A stretch of DNA of 43,501 bases from Picochlorum sp. SENEW3 (GCA_034226945.1 CP120463.1:930001-973501), one strand, 5' to 3'; counted from the stretch's first letter, positions 8,399 through 43,501 are shown. Translations and numbers: made by a program. Notes: generated by a model not told the origin, from the sequence alone.

Positions 8399-10189
8399 TT
8401 ATAATATCTCGGAGGCAATCCTCAACAGTTCTGCTTTGAATCTTTCAACATCATTTGCCATAATCTCCATGACGCTTGTGTCAAAGAGATCATGCCACGA
8501 CTGTGCCCCAACATCTTCTGCTGCTTGAACAAAAGCGGATCCCAGCTTGTTTCCCTCTCCAGGAGCACAGACTTGGAACCCAACCACCAAGCAGCGACCA
8601 CTCTCATCTTTTGGTGCGACAAGCACAACAGGCTTCCTTTTGCTTGTTTGGCTCTGATGATAATACTGTTCCTGCAAGAATTCTGCCATTCTTTGCAACG
8701 CTACTGGGTGCACCAGGAGATTTTGATTCGTGAGCTTATGTTCCGAAAGGTCGAACACTCTAAATGATCGGAAGTTGTGATACAGCCTTTGAGCAATCAC
8801 TGCCCCGCCATCCGTGACCAATGCAGTCTGCAACTTTTTTGCCAACTCCAGTCCCTTTCTAAGTTCTTTCGAGTCATTGCTCCAGCTAAGAGCGTTCCAG
8901 CATCTCCAAAACCTATCAATGTGTGACGATCCGTCTGTTTCCGACTTTCTCGAGCCACACTCTAACAGTGCCGACAGGGCATGCACAATATCTACGGCCA
9001 TGACACATCTATTAAACCCATCCTGGAGCTGGAAGGAGTGAAACATGCAATCGCCCAGATTGTACGACATTCCATGCAGAGCCAGCTGCTCCTGTAATCT
9101 TCGGTGATATAGAGGTTTCATATCGAATTGGAAAGAGCTTTTCGCTTCACGCAGAGGTATTCCAATCTTAGCAAGGAGGAACTCAAGCCTCTCCCTGCCC
9201 TTCTCCGAATATGTTTGGAGTCGTGCTGCTACGTAGGGCGAATTCATCATTGCATCCCACAACGTCCATTCCCTGACGAGACCGAACCTATAGTCATCCT
9301 CGCGTGCGATTCGACAGATAGGCTTTGATGTTGTGGCACCTTCCTCCAATCCATCTTCTCTCTGGATTTCCCCGGGATCATCCAGGTGACCAGCAGATGC
9401 AACGTGATTTTCGTATTGTACGTAGTATGACTCATACTTGGAAGCCGGCATCTTATTATGAATCAAATAGTCGGTCAGTCCAACGATAGCGAGCCACAAG
9501 AAGTATGATGATTCCTGCCGTAAATGGTAGGCCAAGTCATACAAGACACAGGAAGTAGGCTTCCCGTAATGCATACCCGCCTGATAGTACGCTGCCCGCC
9601 TCACTGCCGCCGACTGTGCATGAGAAGATTTTTCACCCCTCCCTCCTGAAGCGTCGCCCTCTACTACATTCATCCCATCCGTATTCTCCGGATATGACGG
9701 ACTGTGTCCATCCTCATCCATGCCCTCACCAAACGCAAAGGGTATATCCTCCAGCGAGATCCCTTCCGACTCGGCGTCCATAATAACATACACCTGACTC
9801 TGTGGATCGTTATCGTTAGCCACATGCATCACCGGGCGGTGAGAATCGAAGATGATGACACACACGTTGGGTCTTCTCCCCAGATCTAGAATCTTGCCCA
9901 CATCCTCTGAGGCTCCACAATTCAACAAAATGATATACCGCACAACCTCGTCCTCGTCGTCATACGCCCGCATGAAGTCATCCACAATCTCCTGATAGCG
10001 ACTCACAGGAAGCCACCCGTGAGGAATCATTTCGTTCTGGAACATGGACTCCAAAATCCTCAGCGCACACGTGGAGTCCGCATCCGACGCTGACACGTAT
10101 ATATGCACATGCTTCTCCGCACTTTTCCTAGTCTCTAGCCGTAAGGCCTCGAATAACTTGACCCACTGGTCGGAATCCGTCAAAATCAT
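8399..10189 (-). CDS. CDC45: DNA replication initiation factor CDC45
   Basis: MILTDSDQW... start at 10189. SDADSTCALRIL, IILLNCGA, IFDSHRPV, LWLAIVGLTD and LLAKIGIPL are CDC45 family motifs. Confidence 0.93.
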   Translation of the reverse strand: MILTDSDQWVKLFEALRLETRKSAEKHVHIYVSASDADSTCALRILESMFQNEMIPHGWLPVSRYQEIVDDFMRAYDDEDEVVRYIILLNCGASEDVGKILDLGRRPNVCVIIFDSHRPVMHVANDNDPQSQVYVIMDAESEGISLEDIPFAFGEGMDEDGHSPSYPENTDGMNVVEGDASGGRGEKSSHAQSAAVRRAAYYQAGMHYGKPTSCVLYDLAYHLRQESSYFLWLAIVGLTDYLIHNKMPASKYESYYVQYENHVASAGHLDDPGEIQREDGLEEGATTSKPICRIAREDDYRFGLVREWTLWDAMMNSPYVAARLQTYSEKGRERLEFLLAKIGIPLREAKSSFQFDMKPLYHRRLQEQLALHGMSYNLGDCMFHSFQLQDGFNRCVMAVDIVHALSALLECGSRKSETDGSSHIDRFWRCWNALSWSNDSKELRKGLELAKKLQTALVTDGGAVIAQRLYHNFRSFRVFDLSEHKLTNQNLLVHPVALQRMAEFLQEQYYHQSQTSKRKPVVLVAPKDESGRCLVVGFQVCAPGEGNKLGSAFVQAAEDVGAQSWHDLFDTSVMEIMANDVERFKAELLRIASEIL

Positions 10190-16650: not shown

Positions 16651-17247
16651 ATTTGCCCCGAGGCACTTCATAAAAGCCTGCACAAATCTAAACACCGCTC
16701 TTCCAGTCAAAATTGGAACCGAAACTCGAACTTGGAAGCAGCCTCCCGCCACACAAATATACACTCTAAAAAAAGGAATGCCACCAAGGACGTGGCGATG
16801 CCAAATACACACCCCAGATACCCCGTACTCCCGACCCATTTATCATATATAAGATTATCATAGAAGCGCTGCCGCCCGACTCGCCCGAGGGACTCACCTT
16901 TTGGCCGTCAGAGAAAGAACACTCCTGCAAGCGAACGTCGCGAGATGCTGCTCCTATCGCAACACAATGCACCAGGTTAATCTGATACTAAACCGCTTCG
17001 ATAGTAATATAACTGCCCGTTGTACTCTGAGCGCTCGAATCGTATGAGACGCCTGCGTCAAGGGGCCAAGAAATGGATGGCCCCCATCAAAGAGGGTGAT
17101 CAACGGTGGCTCATGAGCCATCGCGCTTGGTTGTCGCTGTCTGGAGTTTCGGCAACTCTAGAGTTCCATGGGGCGACTCCAACAATGTGGCAACTTCGTC
17201 CGGACATTGATTATTCGATTCAACTGTATACATTTTTTAGTTTCAAG

Positions 17248-17969
17248 ATGATTCCTGCAACTCACACAGTAGGCTCACGCTTCTTCCTGCGTGGTCCACA
17301 AGTCAGGGCCACTGGCCCCCAGCAAGCCCAGCGTGCCAGAACAGTCTCAAGAATAGTGTGCGAAGATGCTCCAGAGAAAAAATCTGCTGCCAAGGCCAAG
17401 GCTGCGACCTTAAGGTACGTAAAATGCTCGGCATTGTGTCGGACAACCACATCTGGAGGACGGCGCGGTGCCACTGGGTCCATGCGGACCTTGTGCAAGC
17501 ACATTGCCCCGTATCTCACTTTTGTATGCCCAATATGCACATTTCATGGACATCTGAGCCCCGTATACGGGCGAAGGTGCACTAGAGAGTTGCGGTGGTA
17601 GTATTGCTGCTTGGCACCTTGTGGTACACAGCTGAAGAAACTGTGCGCAACGAGCGCTCGGGAAACATCATGGCCTGTTTACATGTCTTTAACCCTAAAT
17701 TCAATGCCCAACACTGTAGGACCGAGTTCCCAACCGCCGAAGCAGTCCAGGGAGAGGTTGATAGGCTCAGAAGTGAGATGTTCACCATGCGCATTAAATT
17801 CGCCAAGCGTGAGGAATACCAGCCAGCACAGTACAAAGCTCTGAGAAAACGCGTTGCCCAGCTGTTGACGATTCAGCGAGAGCGCACGTTAGAGCAGGGT
17901 GTCACCAGGAGAGAAGCCCGTGCCTTAGAGAGACGCACACTGGCAGAGGCTGGCCTGAGACAATTTTAA
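17248..17969 (+). CDS. RPL29: Plastid 50S ribosomal protein L29 (nuclear-encoded)
   Basis: Exons 17248-17414 and 17720-17969, intron GTACGT...CTGTAG. Transit-peptide-like N-terminus, then EVDRLRSEMFTMRIKFAKREEYQPAQYKALRKRVAQLLTIQRER, a uL29 signature. Confidence 0.85.
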
Positions 17970-18785: not shown

Positions 18786-19049
18786 CTCTCAATACCAATG
18801 AGAGCTCCACAACTGTGCCATTGCCAATATGTCGCTCCGATACGCCGAGACTCCATCCGGATCCTAGTGACAGATCGTGATGCTTGGCGACCCACAAAAG
18901 ATAAAGAGAGGATGGCATGAGAATTTCCCAGGCTTTTAAACATTGAAATACAATTTATACTTTGACTTTTAGCTAAAGCCTCCCACGCTGAAGGTGCCTA
19001 CGGTCTCTGCATGCAATTACTCGTTTCGTGAAGCATTCAGCAAAGCACG

Positions 19050-20059
19050 ATGGGAAAAAGGAAGGGGAAGAAGGATGAGACCAATAAAGTTCCAATAATT
19101 GCCGAAGGAAGGGTGCAGAAGAGGAATGGATCGTTCAAAAACAAGGAAAAGGTTCTTGTTGTGTCTTCTCGTGGCATTACGTTTAGGTGTGTGTTTACGC
19201 TCCGTCCTGGCCGGTGCCTCTGATCATGTCATATTGAAAATACGATTCTTGTACAGGTCGAGGCATTTGCTTTTAGATATCCTGCAGCTTTTGCCGCATT
19301 CGAAAAAGGATGCCAAGCTGGACACCAAGTCAGACAGAGGGGTCATCAACGAGGTTGCCGATCTCAAGAACTGTTCGTCAACGCTCTTTTTCGAGACTCG
19401 AAAGCATCAGGACTTGTACTTGTGGGCTGCAAAGACACCCAATGGCCCTTCCATCAAGTTCCATGTCACAAATGGTGAGTGGTGCACCCTCGTGAATAAT
19501 GTGATCAAGTGGTATTTGTCTCATGTGACCAATGTATTTTGCAGTTCACACCATGGCTGAACTCAAACTGAGTGGAAATCATCTCAAGGGTTCCAGACCT
19601 GTATTGACTTTCGATGCTGCTTTTGAGAGATCGCCTCACCTGCAGTTGATCAGGGAAGTCCTGAGCCAGATATTTGCCACGCCGCCGTTAGCCCCCAAAC
19701 GAAAGCCATTTTTCGACCATGTACTTAATTTTAGTGTGGTAGATGACCGGGTGTGGATTAGGAACTATCAGGTGTCGCCAGAGAAGAGAGTGCAATCGGC
19801 AGAAGACCTCACATTGATCGAGGTGGGCCCAAGGGTGTGCATGAACCCCGTGAAGATTCTTTCTGGGTCCTTTGGGGGGCCGGTTGTCTACGATAATCCC
19901 ACATATGTGTCACCAAATGCAATACGGGCGGCAATAAAGAGGTCAAAACAATCGAAATACGTTTCCAAAGTTGGTGCACGAAAGCAGCGGAAGCAGCACC
20001 TGGCTGCCAACAAAGTTCCAAGGAATGAATTATCGGATGTGTTCAAGGGTGACAATTAA
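19050..20059 (+). CDS. BRX1: Ribosome biogenesis protein BRX1 (Brix domain)
   Basis: Exons 19050-19186, 19257-19474 and 19545-20059 with GT-AG introns. NKEKVLVVSSRGITFRSRHLLLD, FFETRKHQDLYLW, GPSIKFHVTNVHTMAELKLSGNHLKGSRP, LIEVGPR, GSFGGPVVYDNP. Confidence 0.95.
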
Positions 20060-25973: not shown

Positions 25974-26150
25974 TATTTGTTGTTGTTGTTTTCCTGTCAT
26001 TATTGGTAGCAATATTATTTGTCAATTACATTATTTACTCTGTGGTAATGCCACGGTACAGAATTACAATTGTATTCCGAAGGCTGTTTTCCTCCTCCAC
26101 CCCCCTGCAACATTGTAGTGTCTCTCAGAAGAAGCACAAAATACAGAGAC

Positions 26151-26729
26151 CTAGTTCATATACTTCTCAATCGTCTGCACCAGCGTCGACTTGGGGACAG
26201 CTCCAATGACAGCATCCATCTTCTGACCATCCTTGAACACCATAACAGTTGGGATGCTTCTGATGCCATACTCGGTGGCCACCTGTGGGCTTTCATCCGT
26301 GTTCAGCTTTACCGCCTTCAATTTATCCCCATACTCTTGCGCAATCTCGTCGATGATGGGAGCGATCATGCGGCATGGCCCGCACCAAGGGGCCCAGAAG
26401 TCCACGAGCACGGGCACAGAGGACTTGAGCACCAGCTCCTCCCAGGTGTCGTCATTCACAGCTCCAGCACCTGTAAAAACACGGCATGCATCAATGTGGC
26501 GAACAAGAAAGAGGCGCGGGCTCATTCAGGTCACGACGACTCTCGAAGACAACGTACCTGTTGACGTCGCATCCCCGGCACGAACCACAACGTTTCTAGC
26601 TGCCAGCGAAGTATATCTAGGTTCCCACTTTTGCACACGGTTAGCGAACGAAGTCTGACGACCGACACGCCCAGCTACGTGTCCAGCAGCGACAGGCTTG
26701 GGTGTCGCGATTGTGGTAGTAAATGCCAT
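26151..26729 (-). CDS. TRXm: Plastid thioredoxin m
   Basis: Exons 26729-26558 (transit-peptide-like) and 26470-26151. [44 protein letters not shown]. Confidence 0.95.
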
Positions 26730-27060
26730 TTCTCACACGTTGGATGATATTCGTGATCTGCAGTGAATATAATCAAATTAACTTGAGGAAATCTGTCGTA
26801 TGTGGTCGACTGGATCCTTCTTATGGGCCCACCGTAGTGGACATTATCGCAGCTGGAAACTCAATCCCAAATCTCATCCGAAGCAGGCCTAGGCCCGGCC
26901 ATGGGTCGCCACCCACAAGAGAGATATCTCTCCGGAGAGAATTCACGCCTGTCAAATACGACAGTTGATGGGAGCCATGTTAAAAAACAACGCGAAGTCG
27001 TCTCAAACACAGTGCGGGCACGCACGGGGAAGGACACCATATCGATTCCTCAAATTAATT

Positions 27061-28420
27061 ATGATTGGAACAATTGCCAGACGGATCAAGTCGCCGCAGG
27101 CCAGCAAGGACGCCAGGCTCTTGCTAGGGCTGCAGAGATTCGTGTCCAGTGCTGCTTCGGAGGAATTGACTGTGGAGGTGCGTATCGATGGTCCAAAATG
27201 ATATATGTGTATCATATAGGATGTTGGGTTTGTATCTGCGACCCCCATGGGCGAGAGTCCGTCGTGCATGGCCGGGATGAGCTTTTGTCTTGGTTCTTCC
27301 CTCACGATGTGCGGGTTTTCTCCATTTAAGACGTTACATCATGTATGCAATTCAGATAAATCCATTTAAGACGCACAAATGTGACGGTCCATCGACGACG
27401 GTGACCACGACGAAGGACGAACTTGTAGCATTTTTCACCGACATGTACAGAATGAGACGCATGGAGATTACAGCGGATATGCTATACAAATCTAAGCAAA
27501 TCCGTGGGTTCTGTCATTTGTACGATGGTCAGGAGGCGGTTGCCGTTGGTATGGAGGCTAGCACCACCAAGAATGATTCGATCATCACATCGTACAGAGA
27601 CCACGCACTCTATTTATCCCGCGGTGGGACTGTGCACGGTGTGATTGCTGAGCTCATGGGGAAGTACACGGGGGCATCCAAGGGTAAAGGAGGCTCCATG
27701 CACATGTACAGCAAGGAGAGCAACTTTTACGGAGGGCAGGGCATTGTGGGAGCTCAAGTTCCCGTTGGAGCAGGGTTGGCACTGGCCCATCAATATTTGG
27801 ACGATGGAAGCATCGGCATCACCATGTACGGGGATGGTGCTGCGAACCAAGGACAAGTCTTTGAAGCTTTCAATATGGCGGCATTGTGGGATTTGCCATG
27901 CTTGTTTGTCTGCGAGAACAATCATTATGGAATGGGAACTGCAGAATGGAGAGCAGCCAAGTCTCCTGCATTCTATTCCAGAGGAGATTACATGCCCGGA
28001 ATGAAGGTCGATGGAATGGATGTGCTTGCAGTGAAGCAGGCTTTTGCATATGCCAAAAAGTACGCCCTCGAGAATGGGCCCATGATTCTCGAGATGGACA
28101 CATACAGGTACCACGGGCACTCCATGTCCGATCCTGGCAGCACATATCGCTCGCGCGATGAGATCAGCAATATTCGGCAAAAGCGCGACCCAATCGAGCA
28201 CGTCCGCAGACTTTTGTTGGACAATAAAATGTGCGAGGCATCAGAGCTGAAGGCGATCGAGAAGAGCCTGAAAAAAGAGATTGACAGTGCAGTGGAAAAG
28301 GCCAAGTCTGATCCGTACCCCCCATTAGACGAGGTCTTTTCTCATGTGTATCTTCAAGCTGATGGCATTAAAGTTCGAGGGGCACGTCCTGGCGTTCATC
28401 ATAAATTGATTTCTGGTTGA
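27061..28420 (+). CDS. PDHA: Mitochondrial pyruvate dehydrogenase E1 alpha subunit
   Basis: Exons 27061-27177 (presequence-like) and 27356-28420. [23 protein letters not shown] motif [10 protein letters not shown]...NN, and the phosphorylation loop [13 protein letters not shown]. Confidence 0.97.
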
Positions 28421-28772
28421 TGCAATTAATTGCAAATATTTGCATGTAGCAAATTTGTTTTTAAAGCGTTGCGTCCTTGTCCTCGTCTTGGGTGCATATG
28501 GTCGACCTGCATTGTTTCCAACTCGTTCAACTTCTCCTAGGCCTAGGTTCGGCTTTATTTGTTTTAGTAGCAGTCGGATGTCGAATCGTGGACACATGAC
28601 TGCGACGACCTTGGGATTTGCCGTCGCATTCCGTGGACATGCCATTGGGCGCTTCTTCGAGTTGTAATCTTCTCCTTTTGCGGCTATTGGTGATATGTGT
28701 GAGATTAAAAAGGATTTTTGGAGATTCATTTGGGACCCACACATCCCCAAGTGCCCAAGTGTCTTTTTCCTG

Positions 28773-28872
28773 CTGTAATTGAACACAATAAAAAATCGTG
28801 ACCCTGCGTCGATTTCATAACAAATGTTATACGGTCGCGTGGTCGTCTTTTTTTCATTGTATGTTTTTACGG
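28773..28872. repeat. Imperfect inverted repeat (arm L 28773-28803, arm R 28841-28872), hairpin unit 1
   Basis: ctgtaattgaacacaataaaaaatcgtgacc ... ggtcgtctttttttcattgtatgtttttacgg. The insert is itself self-complementary (ataaca-aa-tgttat). Confidence 0.85.
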
Positions 28873-29624
28873 ACGAAAACACGACGAGCGTTTTGTTGAA
28901 ATTGTGTCTCCGGTCGAATGGATGACAGGAGCGGACATCTCTCAAAGAAAAAAGAGACCCTGTGGCTTCCCTCCGCTCTCAATACCCAATCAAAGTCTCC
29001 TTTCCCTATAATGCTGGGCAAAAACACGCTTCCTTCTACCCGTATTACTATGAATCTATAACATGGTTTACCTCCACAAATCGAGCCGTGTACAGATACT
29101 CTCAACAAGCAAGCGTGGCATTCGTGCTCTTGGCGCAACACACTCACTGGCGTCCGGCTGCTTGAGCTTGGTTTTGTTCTTCTGCCGTCTCATTGATTTG
29201 ATTCAACAGTATTGCAATGTCAATTAACGATTCGTGCAGAAACCCATCATCAGGAGAAGGAGAGGTCCTGGTCGTCGTGGCTCTGTCCACTGTGATCGCC
29301 AAGACATTCACGTGGAACGGTTAGGGGCCCTTCTCTGTGGACATGGCCATATGTGGGTCGTATGATGGACTTCTTATGATGCTATGAATCATATTAATGG
29401 CTCTTCCTGCGCATGGGTGACAGCTCTGCAGGCCCCTCCTCCTCCTCCCTACCGATGTGAACGGAAATGACGACGACCAGCTGTGTTTTGAATGGGGAGT
29501 TTCATTCGTTGCGGTGTCAGCAGGACGATTTTGCAAGTATAATGGCATACTCAATTCAATTGAACACTCTAGTGGTAGTAGTAGACCGATCGACCCACTT
29601 CCCAAGTACCCAAGTGTTTTTCTG

Positions 29625-29746
29625 CTGTAATTGAACACAATAAAACACAATAAAAAATCGTGACCAATGCCCCTATGTCCTTATGTCCTTATGTCCCCAT
29701 GTCCTTATGTTGCGTGGTCGCCTTTTTTTATTGTGTCTTTTTACAG
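29625..29746. repeat. Imperfect inverted repeat, hairpin unit 2, with an 8-bp minisatellite insert
   Basis: Arm L 29625-29665 (with a 10-bp internal duplication) and arm R 29716-29746. The insert is cttatgtc-type 8-mers x ~5 at 29671-29710. Confidence 0.85.
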
Positions 29747-32700
29747 ACAAACGCCACGACGAGCGTTGTTGAAATTGTGTCTCCGGTCGAATGGATGACA
29801 GGAGCGGACACCACTGAAAGTGTGAGACCAACACAGACTCTCTACTCCGCTCCCATCAAGCACTCCTCCTCTTGAAGAGTAATAAACACCACGATTATCC
29901 TGTAACATGGTTTATGTCTCCACAATTTTGCAAGCCAACCACAGATACTCCTCTCAACACGCAAGCGTGGCATTAGTTGTTGGCATTCGTGCCAACCCAG
30001 ACACACAACCATTCGCTTCCTTGAGCTTTGGAGTAGTCTGGCGTCTCCTTGATTTGATTCAGAGGGGTTGGAATGACAACCAACGAGCGATTCGTACAGA
30101 AACCCGCCCGGAGGAGAACGTCGTCTTGGCTCTTCAGACCTGTCAATGGCATTCCCGTGAACCTGTTGGGGACCCTTTCTCTCTCTCTCTGGACGTGGTG
30201 GTCATACGCTAGTGGTAGATTTGGTTTATTCTGAATATATGCAAATACGAGTCGTGGCCCTTCGTGGCACCTGCAGGCCTCCTTGTCTCAACAGCCTTGA
30301 CGTGAACGGAATTCTTGTTGACAGGACATTCAACGCATTGACAAACGGGAATACCCCTGTATCATTTCACTACATACATCATGAGGGTCATATTTAAAGC
30401 CAAATATGGTGCTCTGACTTTTTTCTACTCGTTGCACTACCTCGGTCACTGAGGTGTCATGGCCCATGGCTGTAGGTCGGGTTGGTATGGCCAAGGTCTT
30501 TTGTACCTCCCTTGCTGAAATACAATAGTGCTATGTATGCAATCATCGTGTGTCATCATCGTGGTTTGGCAATGTATGTATACACTCTAAGGCCATGGAT
30601 GCACGGTCCACATGGCGGTCCACGTGGGTCCATCCGAGAGCAGATGGACCACACTGCTGTGTAGCATGTGGACATCCATCCGTTCTCATGTGGACCGACC
30701 GTGAGTCCCACCATTTCTCTGCGCAGTATTGATTGTAAGATTCTTGCAATTTAATATGGATACATGAGAAAGGATATGATAGATAGGACGTGCTAGGCGT
30801 GGATGCACGTTCCTGCCCACGAGAGACCTCTTCAACAGTTTTCCCTCTACTACTAGTGTCCATGTCTACTCTCTTCTGTGACACTGCTGTAGAAAATGGT
30901 GTTTTCTTCTTCTTCGTGCTATATGTAAGAAAGCTGGACCGGACCATCGCGCGTCTCTCTCCGTGGTTTTCTCGTCAAAGTATCTTTTTCGACGCCAGTG
31001 TCCCCCTAGTGTCCGTCAACAGCTAGATGTAACTGTCCAGTTTCGGCAGGTGGTCGTCTTTTTTTATCGTGTCTTTTTACGGACGAACATCACGTCGGAA
31101 ATTGTTTCTCCGGTCGAATGGATGACAGGAGCGGACACACTTCAGTGAGAGAGACACAGGGTTGAACAAGCTAGCGTGCTCTTGGCGCAACACACTCACT
31201 GCCATCCGCCTGCTTGGTTTGCTTTCTTCTGTCGTCTCCTTGACTTGATTCCATACTATTATTTTTAAATGTTGGAGTGACAATCAAAGATAAATACTGA
31301 AACCCACCAGGAGAAGAAGAGGTTCCTCGACGTCGTGGCATGTTGCCATGGCTTTGTCGTGAACGGTTGGGGACAGTTTTCTCCCTCTGTAGCCATGCGC
31401 TGGTGGTATACTATCAAAATTGATTTATTAGTTATGAATACATGAATCGTCTTCATGGTTCTCCTTCTTCTTACCCCTCCTGGGGAGCGACTCCTATCTG
31501 CTGCGATGGGAGTGGAATTGGCGACGAAACAGAGTAGGATATTCTGTAGAAACATAGAACATTAGCTTATGTCACGATGCCAAATTTTTGATGCGTCGAA
31601 TGTTGCGGTCCCTTGCGTGATGAGGTCCCAGATACAGTGGTGGCAATAACGCATGTGTGACGCATGCTTGTTCCAAATTCTCTGACCGATTTCGCATCAC
31701 GAGGTATGATGACGCATCCTGTGAGGTATGCTGTGCCCATGCCCAGTTGGGGGGCAGTGACGGCAATATTGAGGGGCATTGAATTATATTCATTCCTTCT
31801 ATGACGGTACATAGATCTTATCAGGCTGCCCCTAGTATGGACAGTGCATGCTGTAGGCCTGTGGGATGCAACCTCTGGGCCTCTTGTGGTGAAACTCCCC
31901 CTTTGTTTGTCGTCGAACGTTGCTCTTTCGCTCTGTGCTTTCCGCTCTTAATTTTTGTTTTCTTTTTCGAACAGATGGATCGATTTGTCCTGCGAGCCTG
32001 GCGTGTGGCTTCTTCTTTTTTTTTTCTTGCCTCGGTTTTGAGGCTGTGCCTGCTCTTGCAATCATCTTCTCAACTCCTTTTCGTGGTTCTTGTTGCTTGG
32101 CAGCCTTTTGAATCTCGACTATTCGACACGGTGTCAAATACTAGTAGAGTCCCATTCAACAACCAACCTATTGAGGGTGAGCTCAGTCCCTTTCTTGTCA
32201 CAGGCTCTTTTTGTGTTGTTGTTCCATTCAATGTTGTTGATCTGGTACAGAGACGCATGGGAATACATTCTGTTTGTTCTTTGTTGTCGTTTTGATTGTT
32301 GTTGTGTAGCAGAGAAACCTTTCTTTTTTTTCTTTAGTAGTTGTAGCTCCTACATTCATTCATCGAGTTCAGAGCAGCATCTCTTGTGATGGCCACATTC
32401 CCTAGTCTTTTGGTGGACAGACAACACCTATCATTTCAATCAAAAACAGATTGAGTCTGCTATATATCTTTTGTTCTTGTATTGTTGATGTACAAGGATA
32501 CGACATACTACTAGAAACACTGCTCAAAAAGCAGTCGCGTGTCAGGACGGGTAGGGAGTGGTGCATGATTCCCAACAGATCCCTGTGCATGTGTGTGAGT
32601 GTCCACATCCATCCTTATATTCACACGTTGCCCTACTTACCATACGATAGAATAGATCGATTAGAACATTCGTGTTATTCTTGTGTTTTCTGAATCCACG

Positions 32701-33059
32701 AATCAGTGTGTGGGTGTGTGTGGAGATATGTATGGAGCTGTTTTGCTGTTTTGTTGGTTGAGTCTGTGGATGGTGGGTGAGCACACATTGTGTGCTATTG
32801 CTATTACTACTACTCTCTTCGTTGTTTCGTTGTTTCTACCTCTAGAGCAGTAACTATTGTTGTTTGTTTTTAGTAAACCGACAGTAATAGTAATAGTTGT
32901 AGAGAAGAAGAAGAACAAAAGGTGTAGTAGCAGAAGAGGTATCTCGTCAAAGGTCTTGTCTCCATCGGGAGGGGTAGATAGACTGAAGGCATCGGTCCGA
33001 CAGAGTATTGGACCGATCAGTAAGGTCGGCCTCTTTTCTTTTCTCGCGAGGCGTGTCCA

Positions 33060-34750
33060 TCCGTACATGAGGACAATAAAAAAGGACGACCATGAAACCA
33101 CACGCTTTATCCCGCTCGGCCACACTCAGCGTGCTTTTTGTGGCTTTTTTCATCTCCCATCACAAGGGACGTTTGACCGGCAGTGTAGTTCTCTCCTCCA
33201 TCAAACACCTCTTCTGATGGGAGCCTGGATACGGAGCACACACAGGTGGAGGAGGAGGATAGAGCTGTGGAACAGTCTTTAAACACGACGAGATCTTCCC
33301 CAAAGAAGCGTCGCAATTGTATACATATAGTACTATCCTACGATGCTCATTGCAACACATGTAGTCTAAGTAAGACAACGTGCCATGCATGCTGCTGATA
33401 CTGAGATGGTTGCTCCAGCATTAGTGCAACGTTACTCTCGTGCTTGCCACAGCTTGCTCCTTGCTTGCTATTGTAGTGAAGAAGACGATTTTTTCATTCT
33501 TTTTCTTGTCTCATGTCTTTTCATATACTTCTTATTGTACCTCTCTCTACCTCATATCTTGTCTGTGAGTCTATCTCCAGGTTCTTATCTTCTTCTTGTG
33601 TGTATGTGTATTTGTGTTTCGTCCTGTTATTATTGGCTGCTTGCTCGTATCGATTGTTGTTGTGCATGTTATTGTCATTATTACTATTTCTCTAACTAGT
33701 AGTAACTGGTATGAGATAGTATCTTGTTTTGATTGCTTTGCTTTGTTGTTTGTTGGTGTGTTGTCTCGTGTTATTATAGCAGCAGCAGTAGTAGTAGTGG
33801 TGGTGGTGTGAATGCTGGATGGTTGTTGATTTATTGTATTGTTGTTGTTGTTGTTGTGTGGGGTGGCTGTTTTAGACACCCTTGCTTGGTTTGGTTGGTA
33901 TTTTTTGGTGGTGGTCCCAGTCAAGTCCTTTAAGAAGTCAAGGGGTGGTGATGATGACGGGAAGATCGCCATTCTTGTTGTTCCGAGATGCTCCCTCTTC
34001 TTTCTTCAGACATGTGGCAGCAGACCACTGTTTGTTTTGCACTGGGTGTGCGACGCTTTTTTTTAATGATGGGTGTTTATTATCATTATTTATATTGGTA
34101 CTCTTCTTCTTACTTACTTACTTCCTTACTTACTTAATATTGTGTCCTTCTGTTGATGTTGCTGTTGTTGTTGTGAAAAAGGACAGAGATTCTTTTCATT
34201 CATGCATAGCATAGCATAGTATAGATTGTTGTTGTGTCATTATGATTATTATGAGATTTGTATCTTTTGATTTTGGTTTTGCTTTGCTTTGCTTTTGTGT
34301 TGGTTGCTGTTGTTGTTGTCTTCTCTTGTTGTTGTAGTAGTAGGAGGAGGAGGAGGAGTAGGAGTAGTAGCAGAGCTTGTGGTGTGCCGTGTCTTTTGTT
34401 GTTGTCGTTGTCGTTGTATATATATATAGGGAGGGTGTTTATTATACTACTTATTATTCTTCTTGATATTGTATTGTATATTCTGGTTCTTTTGGTGTTG
34501 TTTTTGGATGTTTTTTTAGTTGGTGTGTTTTTTTGGTTAGGGTATTTTGGTCTTGTTGGTGGTGTTTTTTCTTGGGTTTATTTTTGATTTTTTGGATATT
34601 TTCTTATTTTTGGGTAGTTTGTATATTATTTAATTTAGAAATCGTGTTTATTTTTGTTTGTGTGGTGGGAGTGGGGTGAATATGTTGTTATATACCCTCA
34701 TTACCCTCCTGCCAAGGAACGACGGTATGCACAGGGTATAGGGTATAGGG
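33060..34750. repeat. T/G-rich low-complexity region 3' of the retrotransposon, copy 1
   Basis: Homologous to 42455-43501, with the closest match between 34222-34750 and ~42979-43501. Contains (GTT)n, (GTA)n, (GGA)n and (TA)n microsatellites and T-runs. Confidence 0.85.
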
Positions 34751-34897
34751 AGCAATACGTAACTGAACGAAGTATACTGATATGAACAAAATGTGGAACA
34801 TTTGGGCTAAGGAAGGGTGTGAAAATGTTGGGGTTGGGTTGTGTTGAAGGGTGGGGGTCTACTATGGGCTAAGGGCGGATGTTGCCCCTAGGGCCAG

Positions 34898-34908
34898 GGT
34901 TCAAATCC
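34898..34908 (+). promoter_or_regulatory. Pol III B-box / tRNA T-loop-like motif GGTTCAAATCC, antisense to the LINE 3' UTR
   Basis: Exact B-box consensus inside an imperfect T-arm (caggg-ttcaaat-cctcg), with an A-box/D-loop-like tgggctaagggcgg ~30 bp upstream. No complete cloverleaf could be built. Confidence 0.4.
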
Positions 34909-35833
34909 TCGCCCCGGTTGGCTGTGTTGTGACTGGATGACGTGACTCCCAGAGGAGGGCGCCTCGCTAGGAGAGTTCCTGGGGCGCGGATTCTGCTGAG
35001 TCAGCTTGTCTAGGAGGGCGCGCTCGAATCTTTTAGATTCTCTGCCCATAGTATGGATAAGGTTCCCTTGGAGCCTGGTGCTATCCTACTATGGGGGCAG
35101 CTATCATCTCCCATCCAGCCCACTCGATATGCATCCTCCTCCGTGTCCGTTTCGGACACCATTAGGAATTTTGTGCTATTTCTGGGTTGTGTGGGTTGTC
35201 ACTGCTTGGTTACCACGAGCAGTCTGTGCAGGCATGCACGGTGCTCCATGGGTGAGGGGGACTCTAGTGTTCCCCACCTATGTTGACTACCCAGACGTCC
35301 CATTTCAGTGCAATAATTCCTAATGTCTTGTGGAGGCAGTCCTAGTCAGGTACAGGCCAGCCCAGGTAGCATGAGAGAGGAGCCAGGAGGCAGCACTGGC
35401 TCCTGTCATGGTTCCTCTCATGCCCACAGTTTCAGACACAATTCCAGCTCCCAGCATCCTCTATTCCAGCGCCAGAGTTCCAAGAAACGGTTGACATGAG
35501 TGGTGAGTCGGTTGTTTCTCTTCCTGGGAGGGACATGGGCAAGAAAACCTCGACGACGATGTGTTTCAAACTGCACTGCAATTCTTCGCCAAAGCATGCA
35601 TCATGTCGTGGCTTCATTGTCTGTGCTGTTTGCTCTTGATGTTTTCTCGTCGTCGAGGGAAAAGAGTCCCATGTTTCACCAGGGGTCACAGCTTGTCTTT
35701 CATCCCTCTTTGCTCAGTCTCCAAGGATCAGTGTGCCCAGGGAGATCCACAGCTAGGCCGTACCAGTGGCATTGGCTTATCCAGATCCTCAAGGGACCTG
35801 GATGCTCGCGCTCCTACTTCAGTGTATCCAGAA

Positions 35834-38800
35834 CTATACTAATGGGGCGCGAGACTCAGGAAATTGCCCAGTCCTGAGGCTGTTATGGAGCAAACAGGCT
35901 CTCCTCCACAGGGAGGTGATCTTTGACTGTTTGAGAGTGGTCTCGGGTTTCTGGGACCCGTGGCCTGCAGCATGGCTTGGACCCTCTCTCTCTGATCTTG
36001 ATGATGATGGCTGTCTTGGTGGTGGAGTCTTCTTGGTTGTTTTACGTTCATGGCGGCGAAGGAACTTGTCTATGGCTCTAGTGTGTCTCGTCATGACACT
36101 TTTGATAAATGCTGCCGTTTGTTGGTATGGCGGCGGTGCTGGTGATGGGGGTTCTATCTCATTCTCTGGTGGTGGTGGTGATGGTGTTTCTGGATCTGCA
36201 TACAGCCAGTATTTGGTCAGTTCTGTGAAGAGATCATTGTTGCAATATTTGTCAGCGATTAACCCGGTGCCTCCAAGGCAGAGCATCCAGAGATCCTCGT
36301 CTGTATCCATGATGCCCTCTACATTTAGTAATGCTCTAAAGTGGTCTAGCATGCTGTTTAGGTACGTATTTCTCAATTCTGCATAGGCTGTGCATTCCAT
36401 GCCTAGGTGGTGAAGGGTGTCTTTGGTTTGTGTCTTGCACGAGCAGCAGTAATGGTCGCTTTTGATTCCATTAATGCGAAGATTGGTTTGAACTGCAGGT
36501 GCAAAATGTCTCTGTCTGTATAGAAGATTACCATATCCATTAAGTCTTGCTCTTATTAATGGTGTAATGAAGATTCCCTCCCTTGTTCCTGATTTGAGGC
36601 CTTGTTTCAATAGTGCGGTTGCTGTCGCGAGGCAGTATTGATATGGCACTGCCACTGTGGATTTTGCTCTTTGGCAGGTCGTAATGACCCTTCTAATCCT
36701 CTCTGTCTTTTTTATGTGTTTCGTCAGCTCCTTGGTGGTGGGTATGGTGGTGGTGGTGGGTTGTTGCAGGTCATAGAATGGTTGGTGGTGGTGATGGGCA
36801 ATTGTCCTGTGGGTGTTGGCAAGTTGCTGTAGTGCTCCTTTGGTGGCTTTGTGGATCCATGTTGTGTTGCAGGTGGTGGTAATTGCTGGCTGAGTCAGTT
36901 CCCAGATCCATTGCTGGTACTGGGCCTCTGGCGAGGTGTCTGTGGCATGTGGTGGTGGTGTGTGCAGCGCTGTCACAGCTGCCTCTAGTATTTGTCTATG
37001 GTCGTGGTGGAGGAGAAGGTCCTGTATCCATGTTTTTGACTGTGTCCATTTCCTAATAGCTCTGGTAGGCGCGGTGGTGATGGCGGCTTGGATCGATGGC
37101 AGTCCCAGCTCAATTGTGGCCGAGTCTCTTCTGTAGGTGGCTTTGGCTTTTCTGGTGCCCACTATGGCTAGTTGCATGGCATCGCTATAAATTGTGTGAA
37201 TATCTGTGTGGTCCTGGCAGGGCCCAGCGCCCCAAATTTCGGCCCCATATGTGAGGGTGGGCAGCAACAGTCCTTTGATGCACACCGCCTTGAGAGCCAG
37301 TGGGACTCGGGCATTAGCAAGCATTGGCGCCAAAGCCCGCAGCGCTTGCTCTCCAGCTTCTAGTCTACCTTTTCTCAATGTGTCTGTGCTAAGATTAAGA
37401 TCAATTTGGAGCCCCAGGTATGTGTACTGATCTACTACAGGGATGGGCTGGCCTTGACACATGAATTGATCTGGCGCTTCCTTGGCTTGGGCCTGCAGGT
37501 GTTGGAACTCTGGGAGGGGCACCATGAGGCCACATTTGTCGTGGCCTACTTGCATGTGATAGGTGTCACACCAAGTCTGAAATTTGGCAAGAGCTGCCTG
37601 GATGCCCTCAGCGTGTGGGGCCAGGAGCACGGCGTCGTCGGCCACCAACAGCCCTCGCATGTGGCCCACCGTCCTTCCTTGTCTGTCTGGCACCTCCACC
37701 CCCTCCAGGCCGTCCATGGCGTGGTCAATGAACAGACTAAACAATAGTGGTGACAATGTGTCCCCTTGTCGGACCCCTCGCTGGATGGGTGCTGGTGCGG
37801 TGGTGGTACCTTGCTGGTGGTGTTGGAGCACGAATGAGCCCGACTGGTACACCTTGTCTATGAACCTGTATATTTTCCCCTCACCCCTTTGGCATGTAAC
37901 ACGTGTAGCATTGCGGCATGAGGTACTGTATCGAACGCTTTTTTGAGGTCCATGAAGGCCACGTAGGTGGGCTGCCCCCAGTGGTGCCTTCTCAAGTGGC
38001 ACACCTCGTGGAGGGCTGCCACGTTTTGCAGACATTCCTCTCCTGGCCTGAAGCCCGCCTGCTCCTTGGCCACCTCGGGGGTATGGTTCTGTATTCTATT
38101 CGCTGCTATTTTGGTAGCCAGTTTGAGCAGCGTCGGCATGAGGCTGATGCCTCTCTTGTTGCCCACCTCCTGGGCATCTTTCCCCGGCTTGTCCAGAGCT
38201 ACCAACACACTGGTGTTGAGTTCCTGAGACACCTGTCCATCCAGCATCGCTTGGCACTGCTCCAGAAGTGCTGCTGCCATCGGATTGGGCGGCTCCATCG
38301 CCGTGGGCGGCCCCTTGCACATTTTCAGCACTTCGTTTGGCAGGCCATCCAGCCCAGGTGCCTTGGAGGTGGTTGCCCTTGCCAAGGCGGTCGACACCTC
38401 TGGCCAGCTCACCTCCACATCCAGCTCCTTGCATTCTCCTTCCTCGGGCAGCGGGTGTTGCTGCTCCCACCACTCTCTGCTCTGTGGGTGCGGGTCCACC
38501 GCCAGGTGTGCGAAGTGGGCCATGAGGACTCCCGTCTTGCTGTCCTCGTCATACACCAGCTGCCCTGTGGCGGGGTCTCGCAGCGGCACACCCAAGGGGC
38601 TCCCCACCTGTTTCTTCACCGTCTTCTTGATGTATTTCCATACTTGTTCCCAGTCGCCCCTCTTGGCTGCCTCAGTGGCCTTGCGTGTGGCCTCTGTCCA
38701 GCCTCTCTGCCTAGCTTTGGCCTTGAGCTCTTTGGCCTTGGTGGTGGCCTCCCTCAGTGCCTGGGCATCTTCCTCTGTACTAGGCGCCCCTGTTCTGGCC

Positions 38801-40444
38801 GAACTCTTTTTCTCTATTCGTTTCCGTATTCTAATGCGTTTTTGCACCGCGTTGGCCACTGCCAACGACATGCGCTTCCTCTTCCTCTTCCTCTGTCCAA
38901 GCTCGTCCTTGTCCTGCAGTCTGCTGCGGTCCCTCCTGTCTCTGGGGTCTTTGATGCACCCATGGCGGCGAAGCACCCGCATCGCCGTTCTATAAAATAC
39001 TTCGGGTGGATTGGCGATGCTGGGCGGCGCCTCTGCTCCTTCCAGTCCCTGTCTCAGCTGTCCTCCTTCTCTGTCCTGATGGATGACCACGGCGACGTGG
39101 AGCCACTCTGGGTCATGCACAATCTGCTGTTCCCTGGCTGCCACGAGGTCCAGGTCTACCAATGGAGTCGCTCCGACACGGTGAGTCGACTCTACAGCAT
39201 CTCCAGCCCGAAGCCCAGCTCCTGCTCCAGCAGCCTCCTGTCGTCCTTCTACAAGGGCCTCCTCCCCACTCGCTGAGGGGGGCCCTTCTTCTCGTGTTCG
39301 CTGTCTCTGCTTCGCCTTTGGGCTCCTGAAGCCAACGACAATAGGTGCATGATCCGATTGCAGGTCCTCGCGGCAGGACAGTAGGCTGGTGGCGTGTTTG
39401 TTGAACAGTTTCCGAGCAGGCGTGTTCACCATGAAGTGGTCCAGGGTGGTCTCCTTGACACCATCCTTGCACTTCAACACCCTCGTGGGGTGTTGGTTGG
39501 CCACTACTGTCATGTGAAGCGGGCCAGGGTGCAGCATAACTTCCCCTCTGGTGAGCAGCTCGTCCAGGTCGCCCCTGTCGGGGCAGTTGAAGTCTCCCAT
39601 GACCACCACGGCCAGGGCGTCTCCATACCTGGCGTACCACTGCTGCACCAGGCTGCCCAGCCTCTTGACCACCTGGGTTCGTCGCGTTTCTTTCCCCCCT
39701 GCCCCCCTTGTTGGTATGTACACATTCACCAGGACGCACTGGGCATCCACCACCACCCCTTCCCCTGCCAGCACGGCCTGGACGTTGGCATCCCCAGTGT
39801 CCAACGCTCGGACGTGCAGCCCCCGTGCCACCAGCATGCACATCCCCCAACACCCCGCCAGGTCATCCTGAACCGGGGCACTCAACGTGTAGTACCCCGG
39901 GACCTCGACCTGGCGGTCTGTCAGCCCCACGTGGGTCTCCTGCAGCCCCACCACCGCCGGACGCTCGCGCCGCAGCAGGCGCACAAACGCCTTGCGCTTG
40001 CCCGCCTGTGCCCCTTTGCCCCACCCCGCGCAGTTCCAGCTCATCACCCGAGCACGATGCCTGGCTTGCACCGGCGAGTCGCGCTCCTCCCACCCCCACG
40101 GCAATACACACCAGGACGCACCGTCCACCGGCGCCAGCATAGCTGCCCGCCCGGCGGTGGTCCCCCACAAACACGGCCACCAGGTCCTGCATCCGGCGTG
40201 CGGACACCCCTGGCGGCTCGATTTCAAACATGACAGGCAAAAAACCCGACCCAACCCTCCCCCGACGACGACGACCCAGCCACACACGCTTCACACGAAC
40301 ACGCCCAGCTCCAGTGCCACGATCAAACACCTTGTGCACCACCTCCGCAGCCCCACGGCGAGAACCTACACACAAACCACGCAGTCGCCACCGGGTGTAC
40401 ACCACCTGGCGACTCGTCAAATCGGAGTCCGAGACACGGGCCAT
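35834..40444 (-). pseudogene. Retrotransposon polyprotein split over three reading frames (apparent frameshifts near 40162-40166 and 37873-37880)
   Basis: Joins ORF-track segments 39863..40465 (from MARVSDSD at 40444), 37858..40287 and 35834..38035. RT continuity requires HAKGVRGK-IYRFIDKVY across a G4A4 run. The upstream join in a G5 run is less certain. These may be assembly errors rather than real lesions. Confidence 0.7.
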
Positions 40445-41227
40445 AGCAGGGACGCACGGCCACAAAGATCAACAACAAGGAAAAGCACCTGGCTCCCCAG
40501 CAGCACCAGCAGCACCAGCAGCAGCGACGTAAACTAATAGTAGTATATATATATATCTAAAGATATATAGGCAAACTCCTCGACGGTCTCTACGAGGACT
40601 CGCTCCGGGCTCGGAGGCGACGTGACCACACGCACAACAACGGCAGGCGACAGTCGGATCAACACCACCACCCCCCTTTCACCTCGACGAGTAGTACCGA
40701 GAAAAACACTTCAAATTGAGGACGAGCAACGGGCGGGCAGGTCACGAAGTGGGCTGCCAGCACGTCCGCGAGTTTCAATTTGAATTTTCGAATGCCCATC
40801 CATCCACAGTGGGGGTGGCCTTGGCCAGGGCAAGGGCTCACCAGGAGAGGACACACAGAGAGAGAGAGCAGCAGACACTGCTTAAATAGAACATTTTCGA
40901 AATGTATGTGGAGGCACGACACCTCAGGATCTGCCCCCCGTTGCCGGGTGGACTGCTGTTCAATATCGTTTATATGTGTCTCAAGATTGCATACAATGGA
41001 ACGAAGCGCATGTCTTCCATCCCTCACACGCCTGTCACCGTGGTGTGTCGACATGGCATGCCGTGGCACGCAACACCGTGGCAGAAGCAGGGTAGGCGTG
41101 ATAGTTCGTGCAGATACATTATTGAGGGTACTTCAATTCAGATGAACTATTCTACCAGACGGCACCTGCACCCTGTCGCCGTGTTGGATGGCACAGAAGT
41201 CGAGAGTCGCGCGAGTGGTCGACCTTT

Positions 41228-41482
41228 CTGTAATTGAACACAATAAAAAATCACGACCACCCTGTGCGACCATGGCCCGAGTTTTTGCCCGAGCTGTCCT
41301 CGTCAGACAACATCCGGCCTCATGGGTGGTCCTCTTTTTTTATTGTGTCTTTTTACGGACTTTTTGCTGATGTGGACAGGGCGCCTCCCATGCCCGTGAC
41401 AGCGCCCTGGTGTAGTCTCGTACGGCGAGCTGTGTCCATCGAGAATTTCTCCGTAAATGAGGACAATAAAAAAGGGCGACCA
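41228..41482. repeat. Triple alternating-orientation motif cluster (L 41228-41258, R 41328-41358, L' 41451-41482)
   Basis: Same ~31-bp motif family as at 28773, 28841, 29625, 29716, 31052, 33061 and 42385, with unrelated GC-rich inserts between the arms. Confidence 0.85.
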
Positions 41483-42454
41483 CCATGTCTCCTGAGACCA
41501 CGTCTGCCTTGTCTAATGGTGGCTCGTGGTTTTCGCTGGCTGGCATGTTCTTTCATTCTTCTTCTACCCTACCCCCATCCACAAGGGGTGTTGGACCGGC
41601 GACGGAAAAGAAGTGGTAGATTTTGTTCTTGTGATCTCCTCCTCCTTCGATCCAAGACCTGGTCTGATGGGAGCCTGGATGTGGAGGAGGGCGAGGACAG
41701 CCAGCTGTGAAAAAGCATGCACAAGTTGTAGCAGAGAGCTACATCCCTGTAGGAGAGATCTGGTCATCATGGTCAATTTCATATACTGAGAAGATTTATT
41801 CTCATGTAACAACTTCTAATTCAAACTATCTTGTGAAGGAAGAGAGAACCCTCTGTACATTGGTTGGTATTCTATTCCATCCTCTTCTATCGAACCTCAC
41901 TGCGTGTGAAGGTTGAACGCTCTGTGTTGGCAACGACACGAGAGTGTATTGGCAGTACGTTGTGTAACCTGCGAAGGAAGTCCAGGCCACGACTGGCAAT
42001 GTACGCTGCCACAAGAAGTGTAGCAGAGGAATGGGTCGGGCTGTTTTGCTGTGCGATATTTTATTCGTAGATTTTATTGTTGTTGTCTTTTCCGCTCGGT
42101 ATTGTTTCTTCTTCTTCTCCAGTGAAGAAAGGGTAGGGTGCCTTAGTGTGGGTTTGGGTAGGGTATATCTTAGGGTATTTTGTGTGCGCATGGTGGTGCA
42201 TTTTGCTGTTTTTGTTGGTTGCGAAGATGTGTTCATGCTGAAGAGTAGTTCAAGCGATTAGTTAATTATGTTTGCGTCCTGCGTGTGTGTTTGTGTTCGT
42301 GTTGCGGAGGTGTGTGTACTATTGGCTTATGTAGCCTCATTGCCCTCTCCACAAAGTTCGAGATTGGCACAGGGGGGCTCCCAGGGTCATCTTTTTTTAT
42401 TGTGTCTTTTTACGGACTTTTGGGCGTTGTGGCTGTGAAGATCCTGCCCCCATC

Positions 42455-43501
42455 TCCCATCACGAGAGGAGTTTGACGGGCGAAAAAAACACGTGGTTAC
42501 GAACACGTGTGTTTGTTTTCCTATCCTCCCTCTTCTCCCTATTCTCCTATCGAAGACCTCCTCTGATGGGGGCGCCTGGATATGTGGAGCACAGCAGTCT
42601 TTCTTTGGTGTAAAGCACGACCAGATCTTCCCATTTTTTTCCCACGAAGCGTCGCATTTATATGCTACCCTCATTCCAGCAACACATGAAACCAACATAA
42701 GTAAGCATGCGATGCATGATGATGATATTGACATACTTGTTCCAGCAATGGTGCTACAAAGGACAAGGTGCTTGCCACATCTTGCTACTTGCTTGCTTGC
42801 TGTTGTGAAACAAAGACAATTCTCTTTTCCATTCTTTCTTGTTTCATCCCTTTTACGCATTCTTTTCATATATACGTCTACTATCTCATATGACTATATG
42901 TTGTCTGTGAGTCTATCTCCAGGTTGTTCTCTTCTTGTGTGTGTGTTTTGGTCTGTTCTGTCCTGTTGATTGCTCGTCTAGATTGTTGTGTCATTATGAT
43001 TATTAGCGGGGATTTTTATCTTTCCATTTTGGTTTGCTTTGCTTCTTTTGTGTTGGTTGCTGTTGTTGTTATTGTCTTCTCTTGTTGTTGTAGTAGGAGG
43101 AGGAGGAGCAGTAATAGTAGCAGAGCTTGTGGTGTGCCGTGTCTTTTGTTGTTGTCGTTGTTGTTGTTGTATATATAGTATAGGTGCTTATTATACTACT
43201 TATTATTCTTCTTGATATTGTATTGTATATTCTCGTTCTTTTGGTGGTGTTTTTGGATGTTTTTTTGGTTGGTGTGTTTTTTTGGTTAGGGTATTTTGGT
43301 CTTGTTGGTGGTGTTTTTTCTTGGCTTTATTTTTGATTTTTTGGATATTTTCTTATTTTTGGGTAGTTTGTATATTATTTAATTTAGAAATTGTGTTTAT
43401 TTTTTGTTTGTGTGGTGGGAGTGGGGTGAATATGGTGTTATATACCCTCATTACCCTCACTGCCAAGGAACGACGGTATGCACAGGGTATAGGGTATAGG
43501 G
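42455..43501. repeat. Second copy of the retrotransposon 3'-flank region, running off the window; probable 3' end of the next element
   Basis: tataccctcattaccctc...gccaaggaacgacggtatgcacagggtatagggtataggg occurs at both 34691 and 43441 (offset 8750), preceded by about 450 bp of highly similar T-rich sequence. Confidence 0.88.

Follow-up and report, generated by a model that had tools for sequence, protein, structure and literature searches.

An L1-like retrotransposon joined to a relic telomere tract in a probable subtelomere of the green alga Picochlorum

Chromosome ends that carry retrotransposons or stacked repeat units are known from several organisms. In yeast, the subtelomeric Y' units, which encode a helicase, come with interstitial telomere repeats. 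In the HeT-A/TART/TAHRE arrays of Drosophila, as in endonuclease-independent insertions of L1 at dysfunctional telomeres, the 3' end of the element points toward the centromere and the 5' end lies distally, as if the cDNA had been primed from the chromosome end; a proximal 3' end is the orientation of arrays that grow by end addition. The long interspersed nuclear elements (LINEs) TRAS and SART are poly(A)-bearing members of the R1 clade. TRAS1 and SART1 of Bombyx, together with GilM, GilT, Tx1-1_ACar and MoTeR, are joined by their 3' ends directly to telomerase-type repeats and have an endonuclease of the apurinic/apyrimidinic (AP) type (PMC10088271). Among green algae, Zepp (Chlorella vulgaris C-169 and Coccomyxa subellipsoidea) and ZeppL (Chlamydomonas) are LINEs of the L1 type, with an AP endonuclease (APE) and a reverse transcriptase (RT), which occupy gene-free domains that are chromosome landmarks. 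Zepp was reportedly first found in a telomeric region, and also at the termini of new minichromosomes, in work by Higashiyama in 1997 and Yamamoto in 2003. The element is described as having two open reading frames (ORFs), RT and Gag-like, and as forming nested clusters, one per chromosome, composed mostly of 5'-truncated 3' ends (PMC3446292, PMC8226300). Subtelomeric repeat arrays have also been described in Chlamydomonas (10.1101/2021.01.29.428817). Here we analyse a stretch of 43,501 nt (the window) from the green alga Picochlorum sp. SENEW3. Its positions 28421-43501 are probably the right-hand subtelomere of a chromosome, in which a single L1-like LINE is fused by its tail to the remnant of an old telomere.

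The telomere motif of Picochlorum was long missed. In the cited passages of Krasovec et al. (PMC6141220), TTTAGGG is absent from every Picochlorum assembly and an alternative form of telomere maintenance is proposed; an exceptional motif, CCCTATA, was later predicted for the genus (Fajkus and colleagues, PMC8287931). The last 17 nt of our window are GGGTATAGGGTATAGGG on the plus strand, that is, 2.4 copies of TATAGGG, the G-strand of the predicted motif. This exact 17-mer occurs twice in the window, against 0.00 occurrences expected from shuffled sequences. At the window's end its G-strand runs 5' to 3' outward, which is the universal polarity at a right-hand chromosome end. TTTAGGG arrays, by which the original prediction had proposed to locate the chromosome end, are absent from the window, but the other landmark that it had named, the end of the record, is probably the end of the window itself, and it carries TATAGGG.

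The evidence for this terminal position is indirect. P0228, which NCBI lists as 'LINE-1 retrotransposable element ORF2 protein, partial [Picochlorum sp. SENEW3]', matches the window in two blocks that cover all of its 806 aa with 100% identity, and the only record that carries it has a length of 973,501 bp. Subtracting the 43,501 bp of the window leaves exactly 930,000, from which it follows that the window is probably the terminal piece of the SENEW3 record and that base 43501 is the record's end. Together, the terminal position and the telomere motif in the right polarity argue for a subtelomere rather than a centromere. The original prediction had left the choice between the two open, and it had described the locus as the edge of a specialised chromosomal domain; what we find is instead an entire domain, the whole terminal stretch up to the telomere.

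The centromeric half of that prediction deserves attention, since the LINE and its repeats could be the centromere of this chromosome in the manner of the Zepp and ZeppL clusters of Coccomyxa and Chlamydomonas. The known green-algal centromeres are rich in transposable elements, often clusters of L1-type LINEs that extend over tens of kb (PMC11005252, PMC8226300, PMC3446292), and on two Coccomyxa chromosomes the Zepp cluster is subtelomeric (PMC3446292). In SENEW3 itself, Hi-C at 10-kb resolution yielded one centromere per chromosome, placed without a description of the sequence in the passages cited (PMC11092101), and LINEs represent 1.25% of 13.75 Mb, which leaves room for ~14 kb per chromosome. 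However, the domain occupies a terminal position and closes with the telomere motif, its repeats finish in telomere junctions, and the centromeres and telomeres of SENEW3 cluster apart in Hi-C (PMC11092101). Centromeres of this type are clusters in which a centromere-specific element is present in numerous copies, nested or truncated, and we find no such cluster here. The 364 matches that tblastn gave for 161 LINE-related proteins all fall within 35897-40444 and hence within one copy, and no further LINE fragment turned up elsewhere in the window. The LINE out of which, together with a repeat, the domain was predicted to be built is a single copy, and the two ORFs and the nested insertions leaving arrays of 3' ends, by which Zepp and ZeppL are recognised, are both lacking. 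We consider a centromere highly improbable at this locus, which serves as a caution that in a small algal genome a LINE island without genes need not be a centromere.

Apart from the LINE, the domain holds repeats that we call U, M and R, with three copies of each in the window (Table 1). M and R form three tandem units, A, B and C, which end respectively in a relic, a degenerate and the current telomere junction. The R elements contain 68-76% G+T on the plus strand, the polarity of a telomeric G-strand. Identity between R1 and R2 climbs toward the telomere, from 70% (33346-33660) to 92.8% (34229-34750 versus 42983-43501) and finally 100% over the last 42 nt, as expected from recombination initiated at chromosome ends. 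R1 holds in addition a low-complexity block of ~570 bp relative to R2, and a weaker homology between the two regions reaches back to 33060 and 41450. The M1 module matches its counterparts in three segments: 33060-33092 versus 41450-41482 (94%), 33193-33236 versus 41642-41686 (82%) and 33151-33181 versus 42451-42481 (84%). In unit B, Rx is a third and older copy of R, whose telomere junction (42335-42375) has decayed to a G-run. The long-monomer repeat that had been predicted is therefore real, as the 92.8% identity attests, but it is not a satellite: it is a set of three tandem M-R units.

Table 1. Positions of the features discussed in the text, counted from the first base of the window.
Feature	Coordinates	Strand	Evidence and remarks
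Pyruvate dehydrogenase E1 alpha, the most distal host gene	27341-28420	+	PF00676 E1_dh, E 1.2e-112; codon log-odds 0.142
U1, subtelomeric repeat unit	28734-29420		Self-BLAST; three-way alignment; inverted A-rich/T-rich motif pair and ~40-nt core
U2, subtelomeric repeat unit	29592-30290		Self-BLAST; three-way alignment
U3, subtelomeric repeat unit, without the first arm of the inverted motif	31000-31480		Self-BLAST; three-way alignment
M1 module, start of tandem unit A	33060-33240		Matches to the M2/M2' region (self-BLAST)
R1, G+T-rich telomere-adjacent element	33346-34733	+	Identity to R2; plus strand 68-71% G+T
Relic telomere tract, interstitial (TATAGGG, 2.4 copies)	34734-34750	+	Exact 17-mer identical to the window end
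Full-length L1-like LINE, one copy	34751-41226 (5' limit approximate)	-	Pfam RVT_1 and Exo_endo_phos; tblastn against P0076, P0224 and P0226; frame analysis
Inverted motif pair as in U1/U2, directly distal to the LINE 5' end	41228-41360		Self-BLAST matches
Tandem unit B: M2 (41450-41690) and Rx (~41880-42375, degenerate R)	41450-42384	+	Alignment; R-terminal motif with a single mismatch (42335-42361)
Tandem unit C: M2' (42385-42600) and R2 (42670-43484)	42385-43484	+	Self-BLAST, alignment; 43001-43500 has 76% G+T
Terminal telomere array, first 2.4 copies of TATAGGG	43485-43501	+	G-strand 5' to 3' to the window end; exact 17-mer

The LINE starts on the first base after the relic tract of unit A. 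It is antisense, with its 3' end proximal and its 5' end distal, so that its only copy in the window (1/1) is joined by the 3' end to TATAGGG repeats, at a single junction. This 3' end bears no poly(A) tail. We propose that the 3'-OH of a telomeric G-strand could have served as the primer for reverse transcription of the LINE RNA. The priming end would have been either a nick opened in the telomere repeats by the AP endonuclease of the element, in the manner of TRAS/SART, or an eroded chromosome end, in the manner of HeT-A or endonuclease-independent L1. Units B and C and a new telomere would have been gained later, distally, through recombination between chromosome ends, which would account for the R1-R2 identity that rises telomere-ward. 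By another route, the LINE might equally have inserted itself where units A and B already met at an interstitial tract, losing a few target bases in the process. Given the location of the LINE, we see the case for priming by the G-strand as evenly balanced.

The LINE might also sit in the subtelomere by chance or through relaxed selection, without any priming by the telomere. Gene-poor subtelomeres tolerate insertions of transposable elements, there is a single junction to judge by, and the 5' junction is free of telomere repeats. Yet the 3' end falls on the boundary set by the last base of the 17-nt tract, in the sole orientation that fits G-strand priming, and a random strike there is very unlikely. 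We hold a fortuitous insertion to be unlikely.

A further possibility is a terminal array of retrotransposons, in which a LINE, an M-R unit and a short telomere tract (~8.75 kb together) would be repeated head-to-tail, with the next LINE just past the window, as with HeT-A/TART in Drosophila. The spacing from M1-R1 to M2/M2'-R2 (8.4-8.75 kb), the identical 17-nt tract that closes both R copies and the proximal 3' end of the LINE would suit such an array. But units B and C adjoin without a LINE between them, and proximal to M1 there is no LINE remnant. Furthermore, the record stops at the very base where R1 turns into the LINE. This fits an assembly graph that splits where near-identical paths diverge, which suggests that R2 continues differently; if a LINE followed R2, the position of the record end would be a coincidence. 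Beyond 43501, R2 probably leads into something other than the LINE, such as more telomere repeats, and we judge a terminal array to be quite unlikely. A related candidate, a head-to-tail LINE array in which M-R would be a long 3' untranslated region (UTR), was dropped because unit B adjoins unit C with no LINE in between and because the 17-nt tract is the telomere motif.

Our reading of the locus as a subtelomere with a telomere-fused LINE has several points weighing against it. The window ends in only 2.4 telomere repeats, where a true end in a long-read assembly often holds tens, and CCCTATA is itself a published prediction (PMC8287931). The terminal position comes from length arithmetic and one protein match instead of from an alignment to the genome record. 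The 5' junction of the LINE shows neither a telomere repeat nor a target-site duplication (the k-mers of at least 11 nt that the flanks share are module, motif or low-complexity matches), so that a simple insertion into a telomere tract would need an extra step of deletion or recombination. Family-wide targeting has to be judged from one LINE-telomere junction, and the RNA structure of the 3'-terminal 250 nt of the LINE is not unusual (z = -1.26).

The LINE itself has a simple layout: a 3' UTR (34751-~35882), a single ORF (~35883-40444) encoding APE, RT and a Cys-His knuckle, and a 5' UTR (40445-~41226). Its 3' limit is set by the junction with the telomere tract, and its 5' limit is placed at ~41226 from the start of homology to the U motif (41228) and a drop in GC. 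Pfam recognises Exo_endo_phos (3.5e-09) and RVT_1 (1.3e-14 and 4.5e-12) in two long minus-strand frames that are free of stops. The zf-RVT family reaches 18 bits, under its cut-off of 27.5, although the alignment contains invariant C, C, H and C columns. APE, RT and C-terminal Cys-His thus follow one another in one ORF2-like protein, and the catalytic motifs of the endonuclease and of the RT are present in the translation. In a search with a profile of the LINE family, human L1 ORF2p matches from APE through RT (E 2.3e-92), whereas R2 matches over the RT only (~1e-51) and the isolated L1 endonuclease at ~7e-24; endonuclease chains of TRAS1 or of the R1 clade are absent among the best 60 of the 81 profile matches. 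Judged by its sequence, the element is L1-like.

We found no separate ORF1 in the LINE: the ORFs of 40445-41226 have no Pfam family, and two relatives, P0224 and P0226, begin where the window has its ATG at 40444. In frame with the APE lies an Arg-rich N-terminal extension of ~100 aa (40130-40444, minus strand), which has no Pfam family and is conserved in these two proteins, the identity in relatives being 52-83%; it may substitute for the missing ORF1. An exhaustive protein search identified an intact relative of 1404 aa with 95% identity (P0076), to which the profile search added P0224 (1541 aa, ~80%), P0226 (1583 aa, ~55%), P0225 and P0228. P0225 is a closely related Picochlorum LINE protein from NCBI, located on a separate contig of 1,279,571 bp. 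A word-indexed search with the 753-aa LINE frame gave only 6 distant matches, and the Atlas matches are generic APE+RT clusters.

Two stretches of the UTRs can be mentioned in their own right. In the 3' UTR, antisense to the LINE, 34860-34925 (plus strand) includes GGTTCAAATCC, which looks like the T-arm of a tRNA and has inverted repeats nearby; ARAGORN finds no tRNA there. In the 5' UTR, just upstream of the ORF, 40497-40570 contains three exact 9-nt repeats of CAG type followed by a TA-rich block. We also considered whether the repeats or the LINE UTRs contain an RNA, be it a ribozyme, a tRNA-like molecule or another, and rejected this in view of the absence of ARAGORN hits and of Rfam matches at gathering score, and of the ordinary fold of the LINE 3' end.

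Compared with its intact relatives, the LINE frame is broken by four 1-nt gaps, near 40128, 40095, 37876 and 35890, each in a short homopolymer run of C, G or A. The SENEW3 assembly is nanopore-based (PMC11092101), and the four breaks may for this reason be consensus errors, and we do not call the copy dead. Similar homopolymer errors may be present in the gene-dense part of the record. These gaps, which are typical of nanopore consensus errors, also bear on whether the locus could be an assembly artefact, either a chimeric join between the R1 telomere and the LINE or a placement of R2 that is really a misplaced allele of R1. The assembly combined nanopore reads with Hi-C scaffolding, and repeat-rich regions are reported to be hard to assemble (PMC11092101); the strain is reported to be at least diploid, and both telomere tracts measure exactly 17 nt. 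On the other hand, the window contains no N gaps, a closely related LINE protein (P0225) exists on another Picochlorum contig, and R1 and R2 differ by 7% plus the ~570-bp low-complexity block, with a third, older copy in unit B. This divergence and the third copy favour real paralogues, and an artefact appears very unlikely.

The proximal part of the domain is occupied by the U units, which a unique T-rich stretch separates from the M-R stack. In the three-way alignment of U1-U3, mean column identity is 67% and the indels are not multiples of three. We considered whether the U repeats could be a small gene family and rejected it on account of these frame-breaking indels, ORFs that are 13-38% identical and the lack of any Pfam family. 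The three units share, with hardly any variation, a core of ~40 nt (28893-28932, 29766-29805 and 31098-31137). It is located after a T-run motif, includes a short inverted repeat and has no match in Rfam; its conservation suggests a site under constraint, where for instance a protein binds or a small RNA is encoded. The U and M units have in common an inverted A-run/T-run motif, with 5 matches against 0.00 expected, all inside the gene-free domain; 28773-28803 is 93.5% identical to 41228-41258, and 31049-31084 is 94% identical to 41325-41360. Inverted pairs, with an arm of the AATAAAAAA type facing one of the TTTTTTTATT type at a distance of 60-120 bp, are found at 28773-28873, 29620-29748, 41228-41360 and 41326-41482. 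Such pairs could fold into long hairpins or terminate transcription in both directions.

The contrast with the rest of the window is strong. The gene-dense part was predicted to hold 14 genes with spacers as short as 11 bp, and we indeed find 14 ORFs of at least 150 aa (from ATG to stop) in 1-28700, covering 77.9% of 1-28420, with a shortest spacer of 11 bp between convergent stops at 20059 and 20071. A Pfam family was assigned to 12 of the 14, namely 11 of 13 at E<=1e-5 and the E1 subunit of pyruvate dehydrogenase; the families are UCH, importin, GH9, CDC45, kinase, FtsH, PRAI, Brix, RED, FAE1/KCS, FG-GAP and PDH E1. The genes are dense but not literally wall-to-wall, as the prediction had it, because two stretches of 1.4-1.5 kb each (4708-6217 and 25974-27340) lack an ORF of at least 150 aa; short genes, spliced genes or promoters may lie inside them. 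The assignment to a green alga also stands. The CDC45 ORF (596 aa, on the minus strand at 8399-10189) has a counterpart in Picochlorum sp. BPE23 with 99% identity, and its further, more distant matches are from Chlorella, Micractinium and Auxenochlorella, which identifies the window as nuclear DNA of Picochlorum (Trebouxiophyceae).

The switch to a domain free of host genes is as abrupt as predicted, ~300 bp past the pyruvate dehydrogenase stop: the first repeat unit begins 314 bp after it, and no recognisable host gene follows up to the window end. Beyond 28420, the sole protein-coding element is the LINE. Of the stop-to-stop ORFs that reach 70 aa, 99 end past 28421. Pfam was run on 77 of them, none of which reached the curated cut-off (three sub-threshold matches had 16.5-17.2 bits). 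The other 22 all lie inside the LINE body (35757-40290), and 6 of these were scanned; the two LINE frames among the 6 match RVT_1 and Exo_endo_phos, and the other 4 have no match. A codon-usage log-odds score was trained on the 14 host ORFs, with leave-one-out for the host scores. It is at least 0.062 per codon in 13 of the 14 host ORFs. For the ORFs outside the LINE ORF that measure 100 aa or more, 27 in all, it stays at or below 0.013 in 24 cases. The remaining three, of 102-110 aa, one of them in the low-complexity part of R1, score 0.058-0.086 and might conceivably be coding. ARAGORN found 0 tRNAs in the window, and Rfam gave 0 matches at gathering score, with three matches at chance level (E 1.2-3.8) in 28400-43501.

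Some features of the gene-dense part are worth recording. The ORF at 17044-17601 (plus strand, 185 aa), one of the 14 counted, has no Pfam family and a codon-usage score of -0.046, and may not be a real gene. The Brix-domain ORF at 19532-20059 covers only positions 79-193 of the 193 of the profile and is preceded by 746 bp without a long ORF; the gene (18786-20059) probably includes an upstream exon and an intron. At 6218-8218 (plus strand), the GH9 cellulase ORF carries an N-terminal PAN domain, a pairing that is unusual for a picoalga.

In the literature that we searched on Picochlorum retrotransposons, telomeres, subtelomeres and centromeres, we found no published description of the subtelomeres of this alga or of its LINE. 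In kind, the arrangement is already known: LINEs joined to telomere repeats and stacked units with relic telomeres occur in the Zepp of Chlorella, in insects, in Giardia and in yeast. What the window provides is a concrete architecture for a chromosome end of Picochlorum, independent sequence support for the predicted CCCTATA motif, and a candidate telomere-associated L1-like element that may lead to a telomere-targeting family. Picochlorum is a fast-growing, streamlined alga under development for engineering, including artificial chromosomes. More tentatively, and we find it rather doubtful, this genus could harbour an L1-type LINE family that is targeted to or primed by TATAGGG, independent of the R1-clade specialists of insects, and that heals or extends chromosome ends beside telomerase at about one copy per end. 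If this were so, such a copy number would be in line with LINEs making up 1.25% of a 13.75-Mb genome with 12 chromosomes, and the stacked M-R units with their relic junctions would be a record of repeated events of end repair.

Set beside the known systems, the locus shares features with each and differs from each. With Zepp and ZeppL it shares a green-algal L1-type LINE with APE and RT and a gene-free domain that is a chromosome landmark, but by their descriptions it differs from Zepp in being a lone, un-nested full-length copy that has just one ORF and lacks poly(A). As in TRAS1/SART1, GilM/GilT, Tx1-1_ACar and MoTeR, an element with an AP-type endonuclease is joined by its 3' end directly to telomerase-type repeats; in contrast to TRAS and SART, its profile fits L1 ORF2p and the L1 endonuclease best, telomere repeats flank it on one side only, and it is seen here in one copy. 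The proximal 3' end and distal 5' end recall HeT-A/TART/TAHRE and endonuclease-independent L1 insertions, but unlike in HeT-A/TART/TAHRE the telomerase-type repeats have been kept, the element is single, and the sequence distal to it is subtelomeric repeat and telomere. Finally, three tandem M-R units that end at a current, a relic or a decayed telomere junction are reminiscent of the Y' units of yeast with their interstitial telomere repeats and of the subtelomeric repeat arrays of Chlamydomonas; compared with Y', however, they are units of ~0.9-1.7 kb and contain no ORF.

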